A stretch of 62,947 bases of DNA, the filler included, from Neolecta irregularis DAH-3 (taxonomy: Eukaryota), in assembly GCA_001929475.1 (NCBI GenBank). It is 8 parts of 8 records of this genome, joined end to end, with 100 filler letters (N's around TTAATTAATTAA, not from the genome) between each part and the next. Parts side by side here need not be neighbours in the genome. Positions count along the whole stretch, not along the records: positions 40,267 to 46,121 come from LXFE01002790.1; 7 more parts are not named here. One strand, 5' to 3'. The translations under genes and the position numbers were made by a program. Positions 2,697 through 62,947 of this stretch are shown here, piece after piece (within the stretch, counting starts at the first letter, position 1; every line of letters starts with the position of its first letter). Under the pieces are notes generated by a model. It was not told where the DNA came from and did no database searches. It worked only from the letters and a program-made list of their open reading frames with translations.

Positions 2697-3112
2697 AAAT
2701 CGAATTTGTTGCTCATGAAGTAGTCTGTTTATTCACTTCAATTCTCCTAGTACCCAGTTAATTGTATAATAAAACTCAGAATCTCTATTTTCTATTCTTG
2801 ACCTTGTCTGGTCACAATGGATGATGTAGCTCTATTAGTTTTCTATAAATGTATTGTAGCTGCTCTTTGTGCTCTGTCCCTCCAAGCCAAGAATCTAAGA
2901 ATCGTTATTTCATAGACAACCACAACCTGCGCGTTACAAGATTTGTTTACTTTGTTGCATGATAATATTTGTGGCGGAAATTGTCACGGGACAGTCCTAA
3001 TTCAGAAACCAAAATACGAGGTACTTACGCATCGAGTAATTATCATGGTAGATCAGTCCGGCTTAGATAGTATACAGCAACAAACACATTTTAGTCATTC
3101 AATCCTTGATTA

Positions 3113-3334
3113 ATGAAGTTCCTTGCCGTTTTATCTGTTTTAATTTCTGTTCTTGCGGTGGCAAGTGATTGGCAAGATCCAGAGCAACCCGAAGATTCTA
3201 CACAAACACTTTTCAAAAGACAGCTTGTCGTTCCAGACCTATCTATGAAAGAGAATCATGTGGGCGCTAATTACCATAGAAGGGTATTGCTAAATCGAAA
3301 TCACTAGAGATCGTTAAGAACCGGCGGTGGATGA
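3113..3334 (+). CDS. Small secreted prepro-peptide candidate
   Basis: Hydrophobic signal (MKFLAVLSVLISVLAVAS), acidic spacer and a KR dibasic site. The 3' end is uncertain: stop at 3307 if unspliced, ~3334 if spliced. Confidence 0.5.
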
Positions 3335-3622
3335 CATGGTTCATCATGTAAATCGATTGTTTGTATATACTATTATTCAATCACCATAATGCATATCTTT
3401 AACAGACAAACGTTAATCTAGATAGCATAGGATTCACGCTGATTATTGGCACTTGTATCTAAAAATGACGGTGCAAGTATACAAGACTGAATATAATTCT
3501 AAAGATTGGATCTGACTCTCCGAAAAAGAAATACACCAATGGTTCACCAGTGAACGAGATAACCAAAAAAGACCCCATCTTTCAATCTCAAACAACTCCG
3601 ACTTCCAAGGTAGTAATCAGCT

Positions 3623-5048
3623 TCACTTAGTTTTTCCAAACTTCAACCACTTGGGAAGTCCTTTTAATTTATCATCCTTCTTATCATCCTTATGCCTCGT
3701 CAAGACAGTCTTATCGTCATCTCCAGTAGCGGCTGGTATATGGGAAGCATCTCTTGCTAGACTCATGTACTCATCGTTTAGGAACCCGTTGCTACCTTCA
3801 AACGGTGCAAGAGGCCGGAAGTGAAACATCACTGAACCACGGGGTACAACATCCACTAGAGGTAGTTCAGATTCTTGTATTTCAGTGTATGGCGAGGTGA
3901 GATCTAATTGTCAGTCGTCCAGCTGAATACACACACAGATTGTAAAAGCGCAGTCAATTTTAATTATCCCGCGTAGCCATGTATAAACGTATTTCACTAT
4001 TCATAATCAAACCAAGAATCAAAAAGAAAAGAATATACCCAAAGATTCCTTTCCAAATGTAGCAACTACAGACACTCCATCAGGAAAGCGGACCTTGATT
4101 TTGATGTAGGAAAGTTCGGGCTTTGAACCAAGTTCTCGTTGTTTTTGGGTCAACAAACGACTGCCTTCATAACGTTCTGCAAGTATTGAATGATATGTTT
4201 GAAACTGAGCTGGAGTCATTTCATAATCCGAGTCCGTTGATTTATCTCCGAGTTAACCATACATATTCACGTGCGAGTTACCTGGAACAGGAATTGGTAG
4301 TAGAACCTTTATATCATCTGGCATTGTCGTAGGGGGTTGAGAAGACGAAGGCCGTGAAGGATCCCGGGAAACTTGTCGGATGAGATGTAGGTCATCAGTT
4401 TCTGAATGTATATCAGAGAGATGCGGGGATACAATATGCTGCGGAGCCATTTCTTCCTGGATAGATTGCTTAATGACCACATCTTCCCCGTCAGGGCGGA
4501 TCATCGTTATTAAAGATGTTGATTTGACACCAAGTTTACGTAACGAGCAATCCAAGTCTTTGATCTAGAAATGTTTGACCACCGACCTCTTAAAGACGGG
4601 ATACCTCATTTCCAAGTATTGACATGTGCAGTCCAAGAGGGTCAATTCCCAGGTCTTGTAGGATTTCTCGAAATGTTCGGTCGTCTGGTATTTTAAGGAC
4701 AGTACGTCCGGTGGTAGTTTGTATGCCAAGACTGATGATTTCGCCTGTTGCAAGTTGAGTTTCCTTCTCATCTACAGGAGCAGCGCACCCCGCTCTTCGA
4801 TTTGAACAAGGTCCACCTTGGCCATGTTTGGAATGCCAGCAAGCCGAAAAGGCAAGGATAAGTCAGGGGTCGTGCCATTGTATCTTTGATGCCATTAACG
4901 ATATTTAAGGATTGGTGGGATACTGCAACTGGAAATACCCTGACAACTTGAGTTTCCGAACCGCTTCATCAAGAACCGAACGGACGGTTTGAGAAGGCGA
5001 CGGGTTGAGCGATATACGGTGGCATCGATGGGTAAATGTGATAGGCAT
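3623..5048 (-). CDS. UBX4: UBX-domain protein (TUG/ASPSCR1/Ubx4 family), 5 introns
   Basis: N-terminal UBL (SVLDEAVRKL...DLSLPFRLAGIPNMAKVDL), UBX IKVRFPDG motif, C-terminal LPKWLKFGK. Confidence 0.85.
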
Positions 5049-5752
5049 GGGATAGAGCTGGGGACCGATCATAGTCCACCGACAACACCTTTTTCTTGAT
5101 TTGCGCCAAAGACTCTCAGTCTGGTCTCGCGCATTTCCCCATACCATCGCAAATAACAAGACCCCTTATTCGAATGAAGTATTGGTGTAGTCTCCAAATA
5201 ATTAGGCAGCCCGGCTAATAAGCGCCATCATGAACATGTTAAACGAAACGATGCCAGACTATAATCTCGACAAGAATCTTTATATCGAATCTTGTATCTG
5301 CGCCGTACCTGGCCGAAATTGATACACCTATCAGACGAATCCAATAAAAAAAATTCTAGGAAACCTGTCACCACTGCACAGGTCGTGGAATTTTTCCTGA
5401 GGGATCAAATTCTCAAGAATTAAATCTACATGCCACCTTACCTAATTTTCTTGTCCTTTATCGTTACTTGACAGACCTGCTGAATTTTATGCTTTTCACC
5501 CAAGGTGTGGGTTTCTGCTTCCCACTGCTAGATAACGGCTTCCATCCCTCATATAGGCTTAATTAAATACAATCAATCAACAGGGAAGAAGAGTATTGTA
5601 AGCTATGCGCTTAGAAGTACGATAAGACCAAATGTTATAACTAGCCTAAGTATTCGTACTTGGCTAGGAATATCTAACTTCTGCCTTGATATACTTCCCG
5701 TTAAGCCACCTTGCCGTATTGGTAAGATATACATCCTTACAACTCTGCTCTC

Positions 5753-5844
5753 ATTTAACCGACACCCCCCTAAACCCGACACAATATATGGAATTCTTAT
5801 CATATATTTATATTGTGTCGGGTTTAGGGGGGCGTCGGTTAAAT
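5753..5844. repeat. Near-perfect inverted repeat (~36-bp arms, short AT-rich spacer)
   Basis: ATTTAACCGACACCCCCCTAAACCCGACACAATATA ... TATATTGTGTCGGGTTTAGGGGGGCGTCGGTTAAAT, 1 mismatch. Confidence 0.9.
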
Positions 5845-6844
5845 CGGCGCTGAGCTTATTGCTTTTCACATTCAAGCTTATTGTTATATTCCCCTCTGAT
5901 CATTCTCGAAAAGAAATCCAGATATCCGTGAAACCTTCCAATCATTCCCCTTCAATCAATGTCGTTTGCCAAATCATAAGCCAACCAAAGTCGATAATCG
6001 GCTTAACTATCCAGATATGAAGTTGATGTGTATCCATCCGATCGCGTCAAGATACATTGCGGATAAAGCCTCATCGCTCATTCAACACTTCGCTTAACCT
6101 TCTTTTCTTTTCTCAGGTTCAGTCTAAGCGTTTCTGGAGAGGAAACCTTCCCAAATATCGTCCGATGACCGGGATATTAAGGATAACAGGCCTAGATTTG
6201 CCAATTGTTTATACAAGTCTTATTCAATCTGTGGTTCTTCAATGGACAAGATCGACGGCATGGGACATCACGGTACGATTGGTGCCAATCGGGTTCGACT
6301 CGGCTGATTAGAAAGTGTCATTTGTTTCCAGGATTCTTTTTGACTAGAACCATATTGACCTCACTGGTGGATTTTGATCACAATTGCAACCTGCGTGTTA
6401 CAAGGTAGAGTTTATTGCCAAGTAGAATTTTGGGCACCAAAAAGTGATATTTCACGTAGCCTAGCTTTATTTGATGATTATCACCTCGGAGCCCTGTTAT
6501 GTATTCCTACAATTTTATGTGCTTCTCAAGGTGATTTTTGAATTGGAAATAATCAATCATGTTTCTGCGCGAGTATTTTAATCCATGCATATTTGAGAAC
6601 TGGAAAGACTATTTTCTACTCCTACACGGGAGGGATTATTACGCTTGAAATGGATGTTGAATAATATGAATATAAGAAGCGAACTATGCATTTTAAGATA
6701 TACGTATTCGATGTGTCGATAAGATTCACAAAACTGGTGAAAAGTTCAAAGAGGTGAGGTGATATGGTGGTGAACCAGAATCTAGAGATTATAATGCGAT
6801 GTATGTATCTAAGGTTAGCGATCGACTGAAAAGGGCGACAAACT

Positions 6845-17307: not shown

Positions 17308-17407
17308 NNNNNNNNNNNNNNNNNNNNNNNNNNNNNNNNNNNNNNNNNNNNTTAATTAATTAANNNNNNNNNNNNNNNNNNNNNNNNNNNNNNNNNNNNN
17401 NNNNNNN
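17308..17407. other. Assembly gap linker (N44-TTAATTAATTAA-N44); same type at 40167, 46122, 57009, 58638, 60410, 61681
   Basis: Seven 100-nt linkers of the same design, with stop codons in all six frames. Confidence 0.98.
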
Positions 17408-40012: not shown

Positions 40013-40303
40013 TGGGATGATTAGTCTGCCGGCCGCCTGCCGGAAAAATCTGATCCCTGCGCCCGCCAGAGCCTCTCTGGCGGATGGGGCCTCTCAGGTC
40101 GGATTTTTATGCCTCCCGCCTTCACCAAGAGATCCAACCACCCTCCTGGAGAATGCTCTGGCAGGCNNNNNNNNNNNNNNNNNNNNNNNNNNNNNNNNNN
40201 NNNNNNNNNNTTAATTAATTAANNNNNNNNNNNNNNNNNNNNNNNNNNNNNNNNNNNNNNNNNNNNTCCTTGCGCAGTTTGAAACTTGAAGCTCAACCAC
40301 CAA

Positions 40304-40880
40304 ATGTCCTCTGCAGATTCGGAGCCCTTTTATCTCAGATATTAGTAACCCGGCAGTCCTCCTTTACGGTCGCTGACAGACAGCTCGGGGCATAATGGGA
40401 GATTTGGCCATGAGTTCCTGGGTATAAGCAAGGCTATGCGATTAAAGTAACGTTTGTAGAATTCGACTTCAAAAATAATGGAATCGCTCGATATGCCAAC
40501 AATTCAAACTACAGAAATGACTCTTTGATTCGTAAAGAGATGTGTGTTAGCAGCCTGATGATAAATGAGCTGAAACGTATTATTCGAGAAAGTGAAGTCC
40601 TGAAGTTTGATCTTCTCTGGAGGAGTCTAATTGTACTAGGGAAGACGATAACAAATGGCCAGTAAAAAACAAGGATGGCCGTCAGGAACTCGAAATTCGT
40701 CTTGGAAATGAACATATTTCTTTTGAGACAGCAAAGATCGGATCGCTAGTGGATGTTCAAGAAAGCGAAGATCCAGAGGGTCTTCGTGTATTCTACTATC
40801 TCGTCCAAGATCTAAAAGCGTTAGTCTTCTCACTTATTGGTTTGCACTTCAAGATTAAACCAATTCATAAAGCTATGTAA
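40304..40880 (+). CDS. mnh1: Mago nashi, exon junction complex core
   Basis: [20 protein letters not shown]...[11 protein letters not shown]...KIGSLVDV...[14 protein letters not shown] over 3 introns. Confidence 0.95.
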
Positions 40881-41035
40881 ATATACCTGTAGTCCAATAT
40901 TGGAGACCTTTGTTGTCCTCACACCTGACTCAAAGTTCCTTCCGCCCTTCCAATCCCAATCTATACTTGTGGATCCCCAACGCGCAGGCCACGCGGTGTG
41001 ATACCCTCGACCTCAAAATTCAAAGAAGGATATAA

Positions 41036-42581
41036 ATGGGGCGCGCTAGAGTGAAAAAATTGCAACCGCGGAAGGTATTCATGCCCTTTGATACAGGTTC
41101 GATTCAACAGACAGGATCAGTATGAAGTCGAGACGATTTTAGACGACAGGCCAGATCCTAACAAACCTGTATCTAAATCTCGAGGCGCATATCTAACTGC
41201 TGATTCTACATTTAGGGATCTCTACAATATCTGGTTAAATGGAAAGGATTTGATAACCCTGCGGAAGACACGTGGGAACCAGCAACAAACTTGTTCAATT
41301 GCAAAGAGGTTCTCGAGAAATGGAACATGAAGAAAAAAAGGAGCCTGAATAAAGCTACATCATCAAAAGCAAAGCGAAGATCCCTCAGTAAAGTGACAAA
41401 CAGCCAAGTAAGTTTACATGGGTTTCTCTTGTTTATATTTTGAAAGCAAGAATCTCCGATGCCAGAAAAAATTGCGAAATCTCCGACGTCTATTGAATCT
41501 ACTGTTTCATTCGTATCTGTATGTGATGTGATACATCATTTTTTACTTACAATGTTGGCGGAGGAAGACCTAATGGGAAATTCTAATGAATCATTTATTG
41601 TGAGACATTTTGTTTTAATTACACTTACAACTCCAGAAATCCGAGAGTGTTTGCGAGGATGAAACCAGCGAGAAGAAAGCGGTTTCTCGAAAGCAGTTTT
41701 TGGGTCGGTTATACGAAATACCTGGAGCGGCTATCAGTTTTTGCAATGACGTTGATGATGAGCCATGTCCTCCTGGGGAGTTTGAGTTCATCAATGGGTA
41801 CAGATATAGTCCGAATGTCAAAGTCCCGTCGCCTGAGAGCATGTTTGGTTGTGAGGGTTGTCATATATCGGGCTGCCATTTGAAGAAACCGCAATCATGT
41901 TCCTGTCTTGACGATCTTGATGATAAACACCGAAAATTTGCCTACAACAAGGACAGGAAGGTCATCATCCCTCCGCGACATCTGATCATCGAATGTAACA
42001 GATACTGTAGCTGCGGTCCTGACTGTGCAACACGAGTGGTTCAACGGGGCCGTCTCATACCCTTGGAGATATTTAAAACACCAAAGAAAGGTTGGGGTAT
42101 GTCTCCTTGTGGCATCATAAATTGAGGTCAAGCTGTAAGAACTCAAAGGATTATCCAGAGAGGTATGTTTATTGATGTATATCGTGGAGAAGTCATCGAT
42201 CACGAAGAAGCCGAAAGGAGGGGTTCTATTGACCATCAAGGATCAGTTTACTTGTTTGATCTAGATTTCTTCTCCAAGGGCGAAGAAACTCAAGAGTTTG
42301 GCAGCGCCTACACCATAGACGCTCGCCATTGCGGGAACGTTACTCGCTTCTTCAATCATTCATGCGATCCCAACATTGCAATTTGGCCTGTCGTAGGTCA
42401 TGAACTCGCTCGCACGGAAAGGCTCTACGAACTCGCATTTTTCGCTATTCACGATATCAAAATTGGGGAGGAACTTTGCTTTAATTATCATGGAGAGGGC
42501 AATCAGAAGAAAGAAGGCCAACGCGGTGTTATATGTCACTGCGGATCAGAGAAATGTACAGGCGAATTTTTCATATTATAA
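41036..42581 (+). CDS. clr4: Histone H3K9 methyltransferase (chromo + pre-SET + SET + post-SET)
   Basis: Chromodomain YEVETI...YLVKWKGF...TWEP; Cys-rich pre-[38 protein letters not shown]. Confidence 0.93.
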
Positions 42582-43057
42582 CAATCAATCTGCTGCCCTT
42601 ACTTCACCGGCATTATATGAGATATGCCTATCAATGCTCCTTTTGGAAATTTCCCTCGATAAGTTGGCCCAATCATAAAGTTTTCAGGCGACTTCAGTTG
42701 AAAATATATAAGGGTGCGTTTGATGCGCGCTAAATTTCTTAAAATGTGGCTTTTAAAAAATTGGAATTTTATCCGCGCGTTTGGTGCGCTCCACATTTTA
42801 CAACACTCTCCCCCTCTGCCTCATATTCCTCAAACTATCTCAACACCACAAAGCCAAAGTTATCCAAATATCCCTCAAACCTCCCCGACTTGCAGCCTGT
42901 GTGTCACACGCCCACCTGCCCGCTGGAGCCTCCCCTGCGGGCGGGCAGTTCAGATTTCTCCGCGGGCGGGTGGACACACTACCCACACGGAATATGTGAA
43001 CTGGTGGCGCCTGTCCAATTTGGGCACACGGAGCACAAATGGAGGTCACAGAGCCAG

Positions 43058-43212
43058 CCAGAAGCGGAAGGAGGAGTGCAACTCCAAAAGCGGAAGGAGG
43101 AGTGCAACTCCAGAAGTGGAAGGAGGAGTGCAACTCCAGAAGCGGAAGGAGTGCAACTCCAGAAGCGGAAGGAGGAGTGCAACTCCAGAAGCGGAAGGAG
43201 GAGTGCAACTCA
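43058..43212. repeat. 26-bp tandem repeat x6 with palindromic core GGAGTGCAACTCC
   Basis: Directly visible inside the Harbinger element. Confidence 0.95.
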
Positions 43213-43306
43213 AGGCGTGCTCCGATGGGTTTATTTAGACGGGCCTGGTCCCAAGTCCGGAAACGGGGCGACGCATTCAATCCAGCTATGGCAGCACCTC
43301 AAAAGG

Positions 43307-43315
43307 TTATAAAAA
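43307..43315 (+). promoter_or_regulatory. Putative TATA box
   Basis: TATAAAAA ~50 nt upstream of ATG 43357, followed by an AT-rich leader and AAACATG context. Confidence 0.5.
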
Positions 43316-43356
43316 GGACTTAAATTGTCCTTTCATTTCACTTCAAATAATCAAAC

Positions 43357-43542
43357 ATGAACACCAAAATCACTATCTTATCCATAGTACTAGCTCTGTC
43401 CTGCCCATTTGTGGTAATGGGAGACAATAAATGCTCATCGGAAGAGCAGAAGATCCACCCTACCCCGCCGTGTTGCTATGAAAACCCCCCGCAAGGAGGC
43501 ATCGCCCACTATCGCTCCCCTAACATTCCTATGTGTTATTGA
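43357..43542 (+). CDS. Small secreted cysteine-rich peptide (61 aa), transposon cargo
   Basis: Signal-like N-terminus MNTKITILSIVLALSCPFVVMG; mature part C-x12-CC-x19-C; intact ORF. Confidence 0.65.
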   Translation: MNTKITILSIVLALSCPFVVMGDNKCSSEEQKIHPTPPCCYENPPQGGIAHYRSPNIPMCY

Positions 43543-44566
43543 GCTTGGTTCTTCTGTTCAGATCAAGCAGTGGCAGTATCAGATTTGTTGTTGTGGTTAG
43601 TTCTTTGTTGTCTCTTTGTCGTTTTATAAAATGTGGAGCGCACCAAACGCGAGCCTAAAATTCCAATTTTTTAAAAGCCACATTTTATGAAATTTAGCAC
43701 GCACCAAACGCAGCCTAAGCTTTCTCATTTTCATCATCCGCCTCGAATGTTTTATTATCCCGCTTTTCTTTGAATGATGCTAGAATGCTTGTATTAGTTC
43801 TCAGTAGCGAAATACATATAAAAAAAAACAGTAGAGTCTGGATGAACACCCCGTAAATAATTTCTCGGGTTCAAGTTCTTGGAAGATATTGTATACTGCG
43901 CCTTGTAGCGTTAAAGTGATGGAAAATGGTGGTTATAAAAGTGAAGTTGTTTATCTACGGAAAGCCTTTGAGACGTTCAATCCCAACATTTTGCAGGGAA
44001 CATTGACATATCGCATGCTTTATCGCACTTGTTGTATTGCCAGACGATCGGGTTCGTTGCTGGACAAAGTCTATCTATTAGGCTTCCAAGTCTAGAGGAA
44101 TGACGTTTTTGCGACCATCACCAAGATCATTCCCTGCGCCTGTGAAATCCCGCCAATAGTATGGCTCTGAATTGTAATTTGAACAACTCACTCACCTGCT
44201 GGAGGTTGTGAATTTCCATCTGTCTTGGAAATGTTTGTTGGTATGGGTCGCGACAGTCTCCCGATAAGTAAATCCGTCATTATTCTCATGACCAAAGAGA
44301 TTCCAACCAACTATAAGAGCCTGCTACACGATGCACATTCCGGCAGGGACGGAAGCCCAATCACATCAAAGTTTGATGCCAATGTCTAGATAATAAATAG
44401 AATTTGACTAGTGTGTTCAAGTTCACTCATCGCTCTACAACGACATACATTTGATCGTACGCTTCAATAATTAACAGACTGCGCTGATGTATTTAGCAGA
44501 GTGAATATCTCCATGTAACAAAATTTTGTCTGATGTTGGTAAAACCTATCCAAAACTTGGTCTCTA

Positions 44567-45064
44567 ATGTCGCCGCCAATACTGTTCAATTCGCTACAAA
44601 GGGCAGTATTTCGTTCCGTTCTTAAACCTAAAAGTCCCCTTTCCGGCCACTTTCGAAGGATACAGATTCAAGCTTCTAAACCTGCACCACAAGGCTTTCG
44701 CGCGCGGTTAAAACACTTGAGCGACAATTATGGTTGGTCGGCCGTAGGTGTGTATGTCGCTTTATCAGTTGTCGATCTCTCCGCCTTGTTCATCGCTGTG
44801 AGAATGATGGGCGCGGATACTATTGGTCATTACGAAAGTCTAGTTTTGGGAAAACTTGAAGATACCTTTGGATATCCCACCTCCAAGTCAAATCACGGGA
44901 CCAATAATTCAACAAAGTCAGCGAGCGTATGGACAGAACTTGCGCTAGCCTATGGAATTCATAAACTGCTCATTGTTTTCAGAGTCCCGTTAGCCGCAGC
45001 GGTTACACCCCCTTTGGTGAAATTCTTGCGCAGGAAAGGGTACAACATTGGAAGAAAAATGTAA
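44567..45064 (+). CDS. FAM210/DUF1279 (Nat2-like) mitochondrial protein
   Basis: YGWSAVGVYVALSVVD...TELALAYGIHKLLIVFRVPLAAAVTP; presequence-like N-terminus. Confidence 0.88.
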   Translation: MSPPILFNSLQRAVFRSVLKPKSPLSGHFRRIQIQASKPAPQGFRARLKHLSDNYGWSAVGVYVALSVVDLSALFIAVRMMGADTIGHYESLVLGKLEDTFGYPTSKSNHGTNNSTKSASVWTELALAYGIHKLLIVFRVPLAAAVTPPLVKFLRRKGYNIGRKM

Positions 45065-45146
45065 AGACCCTTGTAATTATTGTAAATATGCTTTCTAAAC
45101 TCCATATCACATCTTCCTATTCTATTATCTATTGTTGGCTCAAATA

Positions 45147-46121
45147 TCATGGTAGTCGCGGAGAAAGTGGTCCATCACTCTCTGAACTGCGGTAGCTGTT
45201 TCGGTGCGCCATTTCGGTCGTAGTAGGTGACTGGGACCTTGAACGGCGTTGCAAGGCATCAGCCCAAGGTGATTCCTCAAAGGAATCGAGAATTCGATCT
45301 GCAGAGTCACGATCGTTCTCACTAAACCTGTGGTCGTTAAAATTGCCAAAAATGAAATTGTACTGAATTGCAGTCAATCCATCGGGTGAAATCGGTGAAA
45401 GTCTCTCGCCTAAAATGCTGGATCGGCGAGAGGTAGATCTACCTAGTCTATTCCATCGCGAGGGTGAGGGGTGAACAGAAAGTTCACCGCTGACACGAGG
45501 CGAAGGCACCAAATTTTCGATTACTTCTGAACTCGATATACCTGATAAATCTAATCGAGGGCGAGTAGGCGGCCCAGACGAAGGATCATGGAGAACGATT
45601 TGAGGCACTAGTATTTAGATGTTGCAGAACGACAGCAATATACCTTCTGCACTTTGGGTCTTGACACGACTTGAGTGGTTTGCTTGATATAAACGACTAG
45701 AGTACATCATTTGAAAAAATCCACTGATAATATCCGTACTAACAAGCTCTTCGACTCGTTGCAATCGAGCACGTCGCTTGAGAAATTCGTCAAGACTAGG
45801 GGTAAGCGTCGAAAGTGTAAAGGTATACGCCAAGCTTTTGTTATCATCAACAATCTTCCAATGGGAAAGCAAGATGAGCATCTTGTTGAATGATATCCCG
45901 CGAGGGTCTTCCGAGGCCAACATTTGTGCTTCCCAATATATCATGTTGAAAGTGTGTCGGCGCTGGTCGTATGTTTTATAATTTATACATGATATTCGGT
46001 CAGACAAAAGTTGAATGTCGATATCGCCAATGTCGTACAATTTCGACTGGTCTACAGACGTCGAGAACCGTAAAGTCTTGCACTCTTGAACAAGTTTAGG
46101 GACAGAGTACTGCTCATCGTA
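45147..46121 (-). CDS. CCH1: Voltage-gated calcium channel, C-terminal fragment (truncated by gap)
   Basis: GISFNKMLILLSHWKIVDDNKSLxLDEFLKRRARLQRVEE matches the fungal Cch1 C-terminus. Confidence 0.8.
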
Positions 46122-46686
46122 NNNNNNNNNNNNNNNNNNNNNNNNNNNNNNNNNNNNNNNNNNNNTTAATTAATTAANNNNNNNNNNNNNNNNNNNNNNN
46201 NNNNNNNNNNNNNNNNNNNNNGCCCTTGCTGCTCCTTGTGCTTGTTCCGATACTTTGGCGGTGGCGGTGGCAAGCTGGTGGGGTTGCAACATTGGGGTAA
46301 AGTCGTGTCCCACAAGTTCAAACTTATTCCGCAATGCTACAGCAAATAAAGGTGCAACTGAGGATAGAAGGGCTGTTTCTACTTCTGATGCATACTTATA
46401 TATTTGAAAGTCACACCTGGATATATGCCATGATGGTATAAATGAGGTTGGCGGAGGACGGTCACATATTTGGTGGTGAAGTTGGACGATTCCACAGCTG
46501 GTACGATTCCACAGGTGGGACAGGACATCCTACTTGCAACCTCTAGGGCACACGTGACCCTTTTTAAATTATTCAAGTATTACTAGTTAACTTCGCCTAT
46601 AAAGATTGTTGTCGCCGCTCTTGATGAGACTACTGAAACGACTTTGCACTACAATGAGGATGCTTACCCTTGAGATTGACAATGCC

Positions 46687-55616: not shown

Positions 55617-57008
55617 TTACAGTCCTGAGTCGTTAGTGGGCGTAATACAAGACAGACCAAGTTCGCCTGCCTTGCACAGGGTGATATCCCGAACCCATTC
55701 GCTGTTGAGGACTTGCTGGGCGTTGATGCGTCTAGTGGGATTTGGATCCAATATTGAATAGATGACGTTTCTACATCTAGACTAGACTGGTTAAGGGTGA
55801 AATATATGGAGGGTACGCGTTTGAGTTGTTCGATTGGCTCGTAGCCGGCTTCGCTTTTGCGGCCAAGGAGGTATCGTTCAAAGAACTCGTCTTCTTCGCG
55901 TTTTGCAGTTCGCCAGAGGTGGCGGCCTGTGCGCATTGCCATGTAGATGACACCGCAGGCCCAAATGTCTACTGCTCGCGGGTCGAATTCCTTGTCCGTG
56001 TATTCCTCGGGGGCGATGTAGGGGGCGGAGCCGCAGAGGCCGCAAGTGAGATGGGCTTCTTGTTCCCACGCCATGCGGAAGCACTCGCCGTTGCCAAAGT
56101 CTGTGATTTTGAGGGCGCCGTTTGTTGTGAGGAGGAGGTTTTCTGGCTTGAGGTCCCTGTTGGTTAGTGCGGGGCGCCAAAGCAGCCGACCTGTGGGCGA
56201 CACCCATGGAGTGCATGTAGTCTACGCCTCGCATGAGCTGTTTGAAGTAGCAGTCTGCTTCGTCGGGGTCTAGTTTTGTGGAGGCGAGGATGAGGGTATA
56301 GAGATCGCCGCCGGCGCAGAATTCCATGACTTCGCAGTAGTCGCCCTTTGCGTCCTGGAGGAGATCGAGGGTGTGGATGACGTTTGGGTGGGTGAGGGAG
56401 GAGGAGATGCAGAATTCAGAGGTGAGTCTTTTTGTGTACTTTTTCGCGGACTCCTGCGGGCGGCGGCGGAACTCTTTGACGGCGTACAGCTGCTCGCCGA
56501 GGGGGTTTGAGATGTCTGTCTTGTGGGCGATCCTGACTACGCCAAAGGCGCCCTTGCCGATGATCTCCTGGCAGCGGCCGTACTTTTCGACGAGGGTGGT
56601 GGAGGGGGCGCCGTCCTTTTTGATCGCGGCCTTTTCGGACCGCAGCTGGTCGACCCACGAGTTGACGAGGCTGAGCTTCTCGACGCCGCTGTCGTCGCGC
56701 TTGCGGGCTACGGCGGCGGAGAGCAGGTCGCGCAGCATGGTGCGCAGCTTCTCCTGGCGCTTGTGGCAGCGCAGGTGGTGTTTGTGGGCGCCGTCGGGCA
56801 GCACTTGGAAGCGCGGCAGCGGCGGCGGCGGCAGCTGCGGCGGGCGGGCATCACCGGCGGAGGAGGAGGCGGCAGAAACGACGGCGGGATCGGTGTCGGA
56901 GGCGCTGCTTTGGCAGGCGAATTCGGATTCGCGGCGCAGCAGGTCGGCCTTTGCGGTCTGCGAGAACATGCGCTGGAGGCGGGTGCGTCTGCGGGGCGGG
57001 GGCTGGGC
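55617..57008 (-). CDS. SAT4: HAL-family Ser/Thr kinase (Hal4/Sat4-like), 5' end in gap
   Basis: GKGAFG, YAVKEF, KRLTSEFCISSSL, HRDLKPEN, DFGNGECFRMAWE, GSAPYIAPE. Confidence 0.9.
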
Positions 57009-57108
57009 NNNNNNNNNNNNNNNNNNNNNNNNNNNNNNNNNNNNNNNNNNNNTTAATTAATTAANNNNNNNNNNNNNNNNNNNNNNNNNNNNNNNNNNNN
57101 NNNNNNNN

Positions 57109-58637: not shown

Positions 58638-59091
58638 NNNNNNNNNNNNNNNNNNNNNNNNNNNNNNNNNNNNNNNNNNNNTTAATTAATTAANNNNNNN
58701 NNNNNNNNNNNNNNNNNNNNNNNNNNNNNNNNNNNNNCGTCCCTCCCGTCCCTCCCGTCCCTCTCATCCCGCCAGTCCTGGTCCTGCCCATGCCTCTTCT
58801 CCTGTTTCGCCCGCCCATCCCATCCTGCCCGTCCCGCCCACCTGTCTCTCCTGTCTCCATATTGTAATATAAGTAGATAGGCTTGCACTGCCAGTACCCT
58901 TGTCTTAACACAAGTGTACTGACAAGCAAGCCTGCACCTATACTCAAGTATCTTACACATACCATATAATAATAAGTAAAGGAATGGTAAGCATACTTGC
59001 TTACAATAACTCTGTTGGGTGAAAGTTCTTAGGACAAGAAATTTCATGGTTTCACCTACACTGTATTACTTATATTGTTGCCAACATTGAT

Positions 59092-60110: not shown

Positions 60111-60509
60111 TTCCTATTCTATGCTCAACACCTATCAATGTTTTAAACCTCCACGCGGGCAATAGACACAACCTACCAGCCCATCTGCTCCGATCGTTCA
60201 GTTGAATATCACAATCTCATACAGAATTCTAACGGATACTGTTGTGACATTCTAAATACTTGAATCGCTTAATGTCTCCCTAATATGATCACGAACGCTA
60301 TCTTCTACATTCCAATTTGTAACAACAGCTACGCCCTCCACCGTCTGAATATCCGAGTTTTTCCGATTATCACTGACTTTGTAGTCCCCAATGACAGGAG
60401 GAATGATAGNNNNNNNNNNNNNNNNNNNNNNNNNNNNNNNNNNNNNNNNNNNNTTAATTAATTAANNNNNNNNNNNNNNNNNNNNNNNNNNNNNNNNNNN
60501 NNNNNNNNN

Positions 60510-61680: not shown

Positions 61681-62947
61681 NNNNNNNNNNNNNNNNNNNN
61701 NNNNNNNNNNNNNNNNNNNNNNNNTTAATTAATTAANNNNNNNNNNNNNNNNNNNNNNNNNNNNNNNNNNNNNNNNNNNNCATTCTGGAAAAATGCCTTT
61801 CAAACATACACTCAGTATTTGAGAGAAAGCCAGATCTTGAGGTACCCGAAGAAAAAATCTGATGATCAGATTAGTTTTGATCAGGTATAAATAAGAGAGG
61901 TATTATTCGTAAGATTCAACTATGTGCACGAAAATCTTTGTTAAATCCTGATCGCATTCTTGTGATTCACAGGAATATGTATGTTTTGACAAGTCTCGTC
62001 GCTTTTGGATGTATATCTGCTGATGGAGCCACTCTAAAATCAATGGGGACTGGGCTTTTTATCCAGTCAAATTGGAGAAAGTTTGGGAGATTTGCAAAGG
62101 ATGTTAAAAGAAGAGAGGTTTCTGCTATCCCAGGGTCGAAATTGCTATCACATGAGGGTAATTTGTTTACTCGAGTGTCAACTGTGGGGACTGGGTTTGT
62201 CTTGTCTATTTGGATAATATTCCCAGACATTATTAGTCCTGGAGTACCCTGGTTATCCATACTGACAGTAAATAGTATATAGTAAATACTTAGCCAAGTA
62301 CGTCTACTTAGGCTAGTTATAACACTTGGTCTTATCATACTTCTAAGCGCATAGCTTACAAACCGAACCCTTGCCCGCCTCGCACCATACCTCCCGCGCC
62401 ACCACCACCGCCCAGGATCGCCCTTTGAGGTGCGGGGAGACCAGTGCAGGTACGCAAAGGTGTGTGCCATGGCCGGGCCGCTGTATGCAAAGCACGCGAA
62501 GCGACTCGTAAGTGCTCGAGTACTGCCCTGACACCGCCCACTGCCGCTCCCGCCCCTCAAGCACTGTTTCTCCTCCGCCGCACCTTGGCTATTACGACGC
62601 TGAATATATTGTCGGATAAGGGTTGTGAACATAATTTGAACCTCGAGGCTGATAGAGACAGAATATACCAGAAGCGTAACTTGGAGATCTAGTAGCGGGA
62701 CTAATTTAGCCGCGGAGGATGTCCACCACACAACGGTACAGACACTATCAGACCCAGAGGACGCCACCAGTAGAGGGCGTCCTCCCAGTCCGGGAGTTTG
62801 GATCTCCAAAGTGTTCCACCTGGACCAGTTAGATAACCTGACAGTGGCGCGCGAGGATGGGTATTTATGTAGCGCCTAACCTTAGGGAATACAAACCATC
62901 TGCCAAGCTGAATATGTTTAGGCAACTCAATATTCTTTGCATATCTG

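Follow-up and report, generated by a model that had tools for sequence, protein, structure and literature searches.

The window analysed in this study is a stretch of 62,947 bases from Neolecta irregularis DAH-3, and the contig that occupies about positions 40267-46121 of it carries a candidate non-autonomous DNA transposon between two protein-coding genes. For N. irregularis, the genome paper (PMC5309816) gives 44% GC and an N50 of 16 kb, values with which the window agrees. The upstream gene (at least 41101-42581, + strand) encodes a Clr4/SUV39-type H3K9 methyltransferase, in which Chromo (1.2e-11), Pre-SET (1.5e-16) and SET (1.7e-21) domains were recognised with Pfam, and the downstream gene encodes a FAM210 domain. 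The element itself covers positions 42712-43715 (1004 bp) and contains an open reading frame (ORF) of 61 codons. An earlier reading of the same sequence, hereafter the original prediction, had placed the insertion about 130 bp downstream of clr4. This location was correct, as the stop codon of the Clr4-type gene lies at 42579-42581, 127 nt before the left TAA that borders the element.

The element is bounded by two inverted arms of 96 nt (42711-42806 and 43621-43716), which are 91% complementary and differ at 9 of the 96 positions. As delimited by the inverted-arm search and by motif matches, the left terminal inverted repeat (TIR; 42712-42806, + strand) starts with GGGTGCGTTTG, and the right TIR (43621-43715, - strand) starts with GGCTGCGTTTG when read as its reverse complement. 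A 20-nt end motif matched the two element ends and nothing else in the 62,947 bases, and none of 100 shuffled sequences contained any match. The GCGTTTGRTGCG motif was found four times in the window, always within the arms, with two copies per arm placed 61 nt apart. In the left TIR these copies lie at 42716-42727 and 42777-42788 (+ strand), and in the right TIR they appear as GCGTTTGGTGCG at 43639-43650 and 43700-43711; no shuffle out of 100 reached four matches. The left TIR also holds a AAAATGTGG/CCACATTTT internal inverted pair. Directly outside each arm stands the trinucleotide TAA (42709-42711 on the left, 43716-43718 on the right), identical on both sides, which represents the target-site duplication. 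A 2-bp TA duplication was ruled out, since the left flank reads TA and the right flank AA. The ends, like the 26-bp array of the interior described below, are far beyond chance. A complete element of 1004 bp with TIRs of about 90 bp and a TAA duplication, as in the original prediction, is therefore what lies at this locus.

The distribution of the element was followed in two public sequencing runs of one study, here called X1 and X2, whose contigs were compared with positions 41400-45000 (3.6 kb) at 90% likeness or more. This stretch was fitted by 153 X1 contigs (40, 36 and 77 at 99% or more, 95-99% and 90-95%, respectively) and by 55 X2 contigs (12, 14 and 29). In both runs the surplus contigs stacked on the element and not on its flanks. 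The X1 flanks consisted of single long contigs with a depth of 401-413, and the summed X1 depth, which is not a copy number, was 2735-5131 over the left part of the element and 13248 at its right end (bin 43578-43698). Sequence variants accompanied this surplus: position 42877 is G in 13 X1 contigs and A in the present copy, and 19 contigs differ from the present copy at position 43652. Other contigs diverge from the present copy at the inner edge of the right arm (43620, 43629 and 43632) into at least three different continuations, and on the left side at 42791 and right after 42911. Moreover, three X2 contigs pass from the element into other flanks precisely at 43716, where the right TAA begins. 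These data fit a repeated and diverged family, the members of which have different interiors and terminate where the arms terminate. Unique TIRs would have counted against the original prediction; the ends were instead found repeated across X1 and X2 contigs with different interiors.

Within the window, no second copy of the element was detected with the end motif or by blastn against the rest of the window (two alignments, at E 0.64 and 2.2). Neither X1 nor X2 contained a joint spanning the entire element, as an empty site would give, and this result counts neither way. A metagenome scan with the two-motif end pattern returned 27 loci, all of whose blastn alignments to the element were of 25 nt or less, and these loci were rejected as chance matches.

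The repeated ends with different interiors, the contigs that leave exactly at the TAA and the TAA duplication led us to classify the element as a non-autonomous element of PIF/Harbinger type. The Harbinger-type assignment of the original prediction was in this respect upheld by the duplication, the long ends starting with GGG/GGC, the four GCGTTTGRTGCG motifs and the repetition of the ends. The element start, GG(G/C)..CGTTTG, is similar to that of PIF/Tourist ends. PIF/Harbinger elements and their Tourist-like derivatives share with the present element a 3-bp TAA duplication, inverted ends, a transposase-free body, many diverged copies and a location near genes. It differs from them in that its ends hold an inner 61-nt sub-repeat and in that an autonomous partner was not seen, and compared with classical miniature inverted-repeat transposable elements (MITEs) it is longer (1004 bp, with 95-nt ends). 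According to the accessible sections of PMC8903248, most PIF elements create TTA or TAA duplications, and those of PMC5751038 list PIF/Harbinger among the core DNA transposons of fungi. Most likely, a PIF/Harbinger DDE transposase and a Myb-like helper, both encoded elsewhere, would recognise the 95-nt ends, with the four GCGTTTGRTGCG motifs (a pair in each end, spaced by 61 nt) as the probable binding sites. The element would then be excised and inserted at a TAA, which would be duplicated in the process.

The interior of the element is composed of successive modules. Next to the left TIR lies a C/A-rich subterminal stretch (42807-42912, + strand), which is common to many family copies as judged from the X1 depth, the variants at 42877 and the divergence after 42911. 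It is followed by a GC-rich hairpin (42913-42975, + strand), recognised by DNA folding and by composition, with which the GC-rich interior begins. The fold of 42913-42973 reached -22.5 kcal/mol (z -2.72), and none of 200 shuffles was as stable, so that the hairpin is real but modest. The GC content is 63% at 42913-43068 and 56-63% across 42913-43200, compared with 39-41% in the ends. A 26-bp tandem array occupies 43058-43211 (+ strand; TRF period 26, 6.0 copies, 92% matches). Its unit contains the palindrome GGAGT-GCA-ACTCC, and one of its units measures 23 bp. As a period of 26 is no multiple of three, the array is not a coding repeat. Over 42973-43335 the summed X1 depth was 1149-1457, about three times that of the flanks, and at position 43321 the letter of other copies accounted for 1363 of a depth of 1778. 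Taken together, these values suggest that the GC-rich interior is common to only a few copies.

Downstream of a TATAAAA sequence (43308-43314, + strand) that was located by sequence search, the X1 contigs delimit a repeated family module at 43339-43422 (+ strand), consisting of 18 nt of leader and 22 signal-like codons. The next segment (43423-43538, + strand), which encodes the Cys-bearing "mature" part of the frame, is nearly single-copy according to the X1 depth and joints. From the stop codon to the right end extends a T/G-rich stretch (43543-43620, + strand) with 72% T+G. The GC hairpin at about 42913-42973, the six palindromic 26-bp copies and the T/G-rich 3' region announced in the original prediction could all be located in this way, by folding, TRF and composition. 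No Rfam match was obtained in 42500-43900 (E up to 1) and no Pfam family for four interior frames, and a 171-aa frame running across the left end and the array had no match among 5.8 billion protein clusters. The interior is thus a mosaic, as the contigs show in part: modules at 42807-42912 and 43339-43422 and the stretch preceding the right end are common in the family, and rarer or private modules are 43423-43538 and the GC-rich segment 42913-43338, in which the 26-bp array lies.

Such a composite structure could also be produced if a pair of independent short family members (or of solo ends) had inserted in inverted orientation around host DNA that maybe holds a small-peptide gene. The nine differences between the arms and the compositional step between the interior (56-63% GC over 42913-43200) and the ends (39-41%) agree with this explanation, as do the family forms in which other sequence directly adjoins an end (loose ends at 42791 and 43620-43632). 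However, TAA is found at the two outer borders only, as for a single insertion, and the interior is itself repeated with the family, at 42807-42912, at 43339-43422 and through a GC-rich part with about three times the flank depth. Furthermore, the insert-free gap between the Clr4-type and FAM210 genes is about 240 bp, which leaves no room for a third gene and counts against two insertions. We regard this explanation as very improbable.

The 61-codon ORF and its TGA stop codon cover 43357-43542 (+ strand), and the N-terminus of the predicted peptide is MNTKITILSIVLALSCPFVVMG. The TATAAAA sequence lies 49 nt 5' of the ATG, and the four Cys residues (positions 26, 39, 40 and 60) all follow residue 22. 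The TATA box, the intact 61-aa frame and the four Cys residues of the original prediction are therefore present, at 43308 and 43357-43542. An AATAAA sequence lies inside the frame at 43426-43431, just after the signal-like part. As for the proposed signal peptide, the frame passed a crude rule of our own, and so did 8 of the 267 ATG frames of at least 40 aa in the window and, in shuffled sequences, 4.6 of 167 on average. In the window, 5 of 40 TATAAA[AT] sites were followed by a frame of at least 50 aa. The codon-usage score of the ORF was 0.047 per codon, compared with 0.153 +/- 0.087 for coding windows of equal length and 0.024 +/- 0.090 for 121 small frames, of which 39% scored at least as high as the ORF. 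These features of the ORF are not beyond chance.

No relative of the predicted peptide was found among proteins of 33-107 aa or of 108-2000 aa, and no Pfam family was assigned to it. The sole match among 1.84 billion representatives was a 14-residue match summed over five repeats to an unrelated protein, with no Cys aligned, and it was dismissed as a chance match. Nor did these searches yield any related or paralogous protein that conserves the Cys pattern, and in X1 the Cys-bearing part is close to single-copy. A single-sequence AlphaFold model of the peptide was not confident (predicted local distance difference test, pLDDT, 52.4; predicted template modelling score, pTM, 0.20).

The X1 contigs showed how the two halves of the frame are distributed in the family. 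One X1 contig of 84 nt corresponds exactly to 43339-43422, with a depth of 764 and 3 differences. The summed X1 depth was 3180 in the bin 43336-43456 and fell to 548 in the bin 43457-43577, which is near the value for one copy (flanks 401-413). Two contigs have 93-nt loose ends after 43421, and X1 joints were recorded at 43422>43539 and 43423>43545, with sides of 30 letters and the entry "between: not known". Other copies thus diverge from the present copy just where the signal-like part ends and rejoin it at the stop codon. Since the divergence falls at 43421-43423, the Cys-bearing half is nearly private to the present copy. The depth of the module (3180, and 764 for the 84-nt contig) set against that of the mature part (548), together with the joints, indicates that the family multiplies the signal-like module and not this peptide. 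The 61-codon frame is most likely a by-product of the mosaic, in which a family module with a hydrophobic reading meets a private insert, and not a working secreted-peptide gene.

Transcription of the locus was examined in the contigs of X2. This run is recorded only as "DNA?", and no run containing the element stretch is recorded as RNA. X2 nevertheless behaves as RNA, because its contigs skip GT..AG introns of 34-46 nt in both genes flanking the element, and its spliced contigs skip introns of 36-39 nt within the Clr4-type gene. One X2 contig of 2063 nt joins exons of the Clr4-type gene to the 127-nt spacer and reaches 83 nt into the element. Other X2 contigs are identical to the present copy over 42843-43147 (depth 94) and over 43182-43364, including the TATA box (depth 48), and the depth of the Clr4-type transcript was 86. 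The transcripts of the Clr4-type gene thus run into the element. No X2 contigs were present over 43457-43577, which corresponds to most of the mature part, and this hole was not taken as evidence. At position 43321, the letter of other copies made up 69 of a depth of 118 in X2, and interiors of more than one copy are accordingly represented in this RNA-like run. As the contigs of the spliced run cover the putative enhancer/TATA region and bridge from the Clr4-type gene into the element, read-through or transcription of the whole element fits these data better than a start after the TATA box.

Read-through also raises the question of whether the insertion was co-opted by the Clr4-type gene, whose mRNA would take its 3' untranslated end, and maybe also its poly(A) site, from the element, a proposal that does not exclude the transposon reading. 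An X2 contig does bridge last exon, spacer and element, present-copy-identical contigs reach 43364 at a similar depth, and an AATAAA is available at 43426-43431. In a variant of this proposal, the level of the Clr4-type protein could be tied to small RNAs against the transposon family, and the insertion would act as a feedback sensor. On the other hand, the contigs show no strand or ends, small RNAs were no observation in this analysis, and read-through into a young insertion is expected even without function. The presence of other copies in the RNA-like run further indicates that transcription needs no Clr4-type gene, which counts against co-option, and we consider such a role rather improbable.

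Some further observations concern the transcripts of the two flanking genes. The AATAAA at 43426-43431 could be an end signal for transcripts that enter from the Clr4-type gene. Within this gene, a 39-nt stretch that is skipped by one spliced X2 contig (41519-41557) has GT..TG ends in place of GT..AG, and the record again gives "between: not known". An X2 contig over the downstream FAM210 gene begins at or before 43830. Over the same gene, a 7027-nt X2 contig skips a CT..AC stretch at 44070-44105, which corresponds to an intron of the opposite strand, while the neighbouring introns are GT..AG. Either transcripts of both strands overlap at this place, or the contig merges two RNAs.

Taken together, these features suggest that the locus probably carries a non-autonomous PIF/Harbinger-type element that is moved in trans and has a mosaic, non-coding interior, in which the small frame arose incidentally where a family module adjoins a private insert. 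Several points weigh against this reading. No transposase family was recognised among the 20 long window frames scanned with Pfam and no Myb-like partner was seen, so the superfamily would be assigned solely from the ends and the duplication. The cassette-like order of the interior is striking, with TATAAAA, a 49-nt leader, an A at -3 of the ATG, a hydrophobic start with a V-M-G site of cleavage type, four Cys, a stop codon and a T/G-rich tail. In a protein-language-model Atlas the nearest clusters were those of small secreted Cys-rich toxins (0.84 and 0.82), which are leads only. The first 30 loose letters past 43421, inspected by eye in the two diverging contigs, are open in the frame of the ORF and again contain Lys-Cys directly behind the signal-like part. 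Ten codons carry no weight, but they would agree with a family that conserves the signal peptide and varies the mature part. Finally, a short mRNA that starts after the TATA box remains compatible with the X1 and X2 contigs, which give neither strand nor transcript starts and ends.

Alternatively, the element could carry a functional gene that codes for a small secreted peptide with four Cys under a promoter of its own, made of the array as enhancer and the TATA box, and could spread around the genome this gene or a family of genes that share its signal but differ in their mature parts. In favour of it, the order and spacing are fitting from TATAAAA and ATG through the signal-like start and the Cys residues to the stop codon, the crude signal-peptide rule was passed, and the Atlas clusters provide a lead in the same direction. 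Other copies retain the leader and signal module, their diverging continuation starts in frame with Lys-Cys again, and X2 contains the other copies' letter at 43321 (69/118). However, the ORF had no relatives in the protein searches and its codon usage is chance-like. The part coding for the mature peptide is near single-copy, so that what the family multiplies is not the peptide gene itself. The putative promoter is covered by contigs of the spliced run at the depth of the upstream transcript, an AATAAA lies within the frame, 3% of chance frames are signal-peptide-like, and the single-sequence fold reached a pLDDT of 52. A working peptide gene of this kind is considered unlikely. It is less probable again that the family consists of transposon-borne peptide genes with a kept leader and signal module (43339-43422), a kept tail and a mature part that varies by copy. 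Such a variable-peptide transposon system is unlikely on present evidence.

The original prediction had gone further and described a "Pack-Harbinger" that moves an effector gene with its own promoter. This claim found no support, in view of the orphan frame with chance-like codons, the nearly private Cys half and a promoter covered by RNA-like contigs. To our knowledge, N. irregularis is not a known pathogen, and an "effector" would therefore be without an obvious target. Pack-PIF elements of maize and rice, as presented in the available text of PMC8903248, resemble the present element in being non-autonomous TIR elements with a non-transposon-like interior that differs between members. The Pack-TYPE pipeline of the same source, as far as it is described there, requires a match to coding genes, and by this rule the present element, the interior of which gave no match to any coding gene or family in the protein, Pfam and Rfam searches, would rank as a "non-Pack" non-autonomous element. 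ToxhAT, described in the accessible part of PMC6737239, is a 14-kb DNA transposon that carried the effector gene ToxA between wheat pathogens. The likeness lies only in the proposed idea that a secreted-protein gene is mobilised by a class II element. ToxhAT is of 14 kb, belongs to a different superfamily and has as its cargo a proven virulence protein of plant pathogens, whereas the present element is of 1 kb, contains an orphan frame of only putative expression and comes from an organism that is not a known pathogen. The mimp MITEs, which according to the accessible part of PMC3599309 lie in promoters of Fusarium oxysporum effector genes, similarly associate a short non-autonomous element with small secreted-protein genes in a fungus. 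They differ in that the MITE is located in the promoter, outside the gene, while the present frame is inside the element.

Other features were noted elsewhere in the window. Seven linkers (44 N, TTAATTAATTAA and 44 N) separate its contigs, at 17308-17407, 40167-40266, 46122-46221, 57009-57108, 58638-58737, 60410-60509 and 61681-61780. As the window is made of contigs joined by these linkers, neighbourhood across them is meaningless. At 5743-5854, a 46-nt inverted pair (89% complementary, 20-nt loop), rich in C- and G-runs, may be a small hairpin element. Blocks of 63-64% GC occur at 1-1000 and 56001-57000 in a window of about 42% GC, and the second of them overlaps a protein kinase-domain frame. 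A 64-aa frame at 3113-3304 (+ strand) has a textbook signal-peptide start, with Lys-Arg about 20 residues later, and passes the crude rule; it has no Pfam match and may be the first exon of a secreted-protein gene.

The Taphrinomycotina are credited with a very small number of DNA transposons, which belong to only 5 superfamilies, in the accessible part of PMC5751038, and Neolecta has no occurrence in the main text of that paper. The string "transpos" likewise does not occur in the main text, supplements aside, of the Neolecta genome paper (PMC5309816). No literature on Neolecta transposons was found, nor any text linking Neolecta with Harbinger, again leaving the supplements of PMC5309816 aside. 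If the element did carry and diversify a secreted-peptide gene along with its promoter, this would be rare for a small DNA transposon and would bear on the origin of orphan secreted peptides. If the mature part did vary by copy, a set of small secreted Cys peptides under their own promoter would have been spread and diversified by transposition in an early-diverging ascomycete, in the manner of toxin families that keep their signal. As a probable non-autonomous PIF/Harbinger-type family, the element adds a described family of this kind to a fungal lineage for which we found no transposon literature. Its presence inside the transcript of a Clr4/SUV39 gene, the type of gene that silences transposons, is a curiosity.

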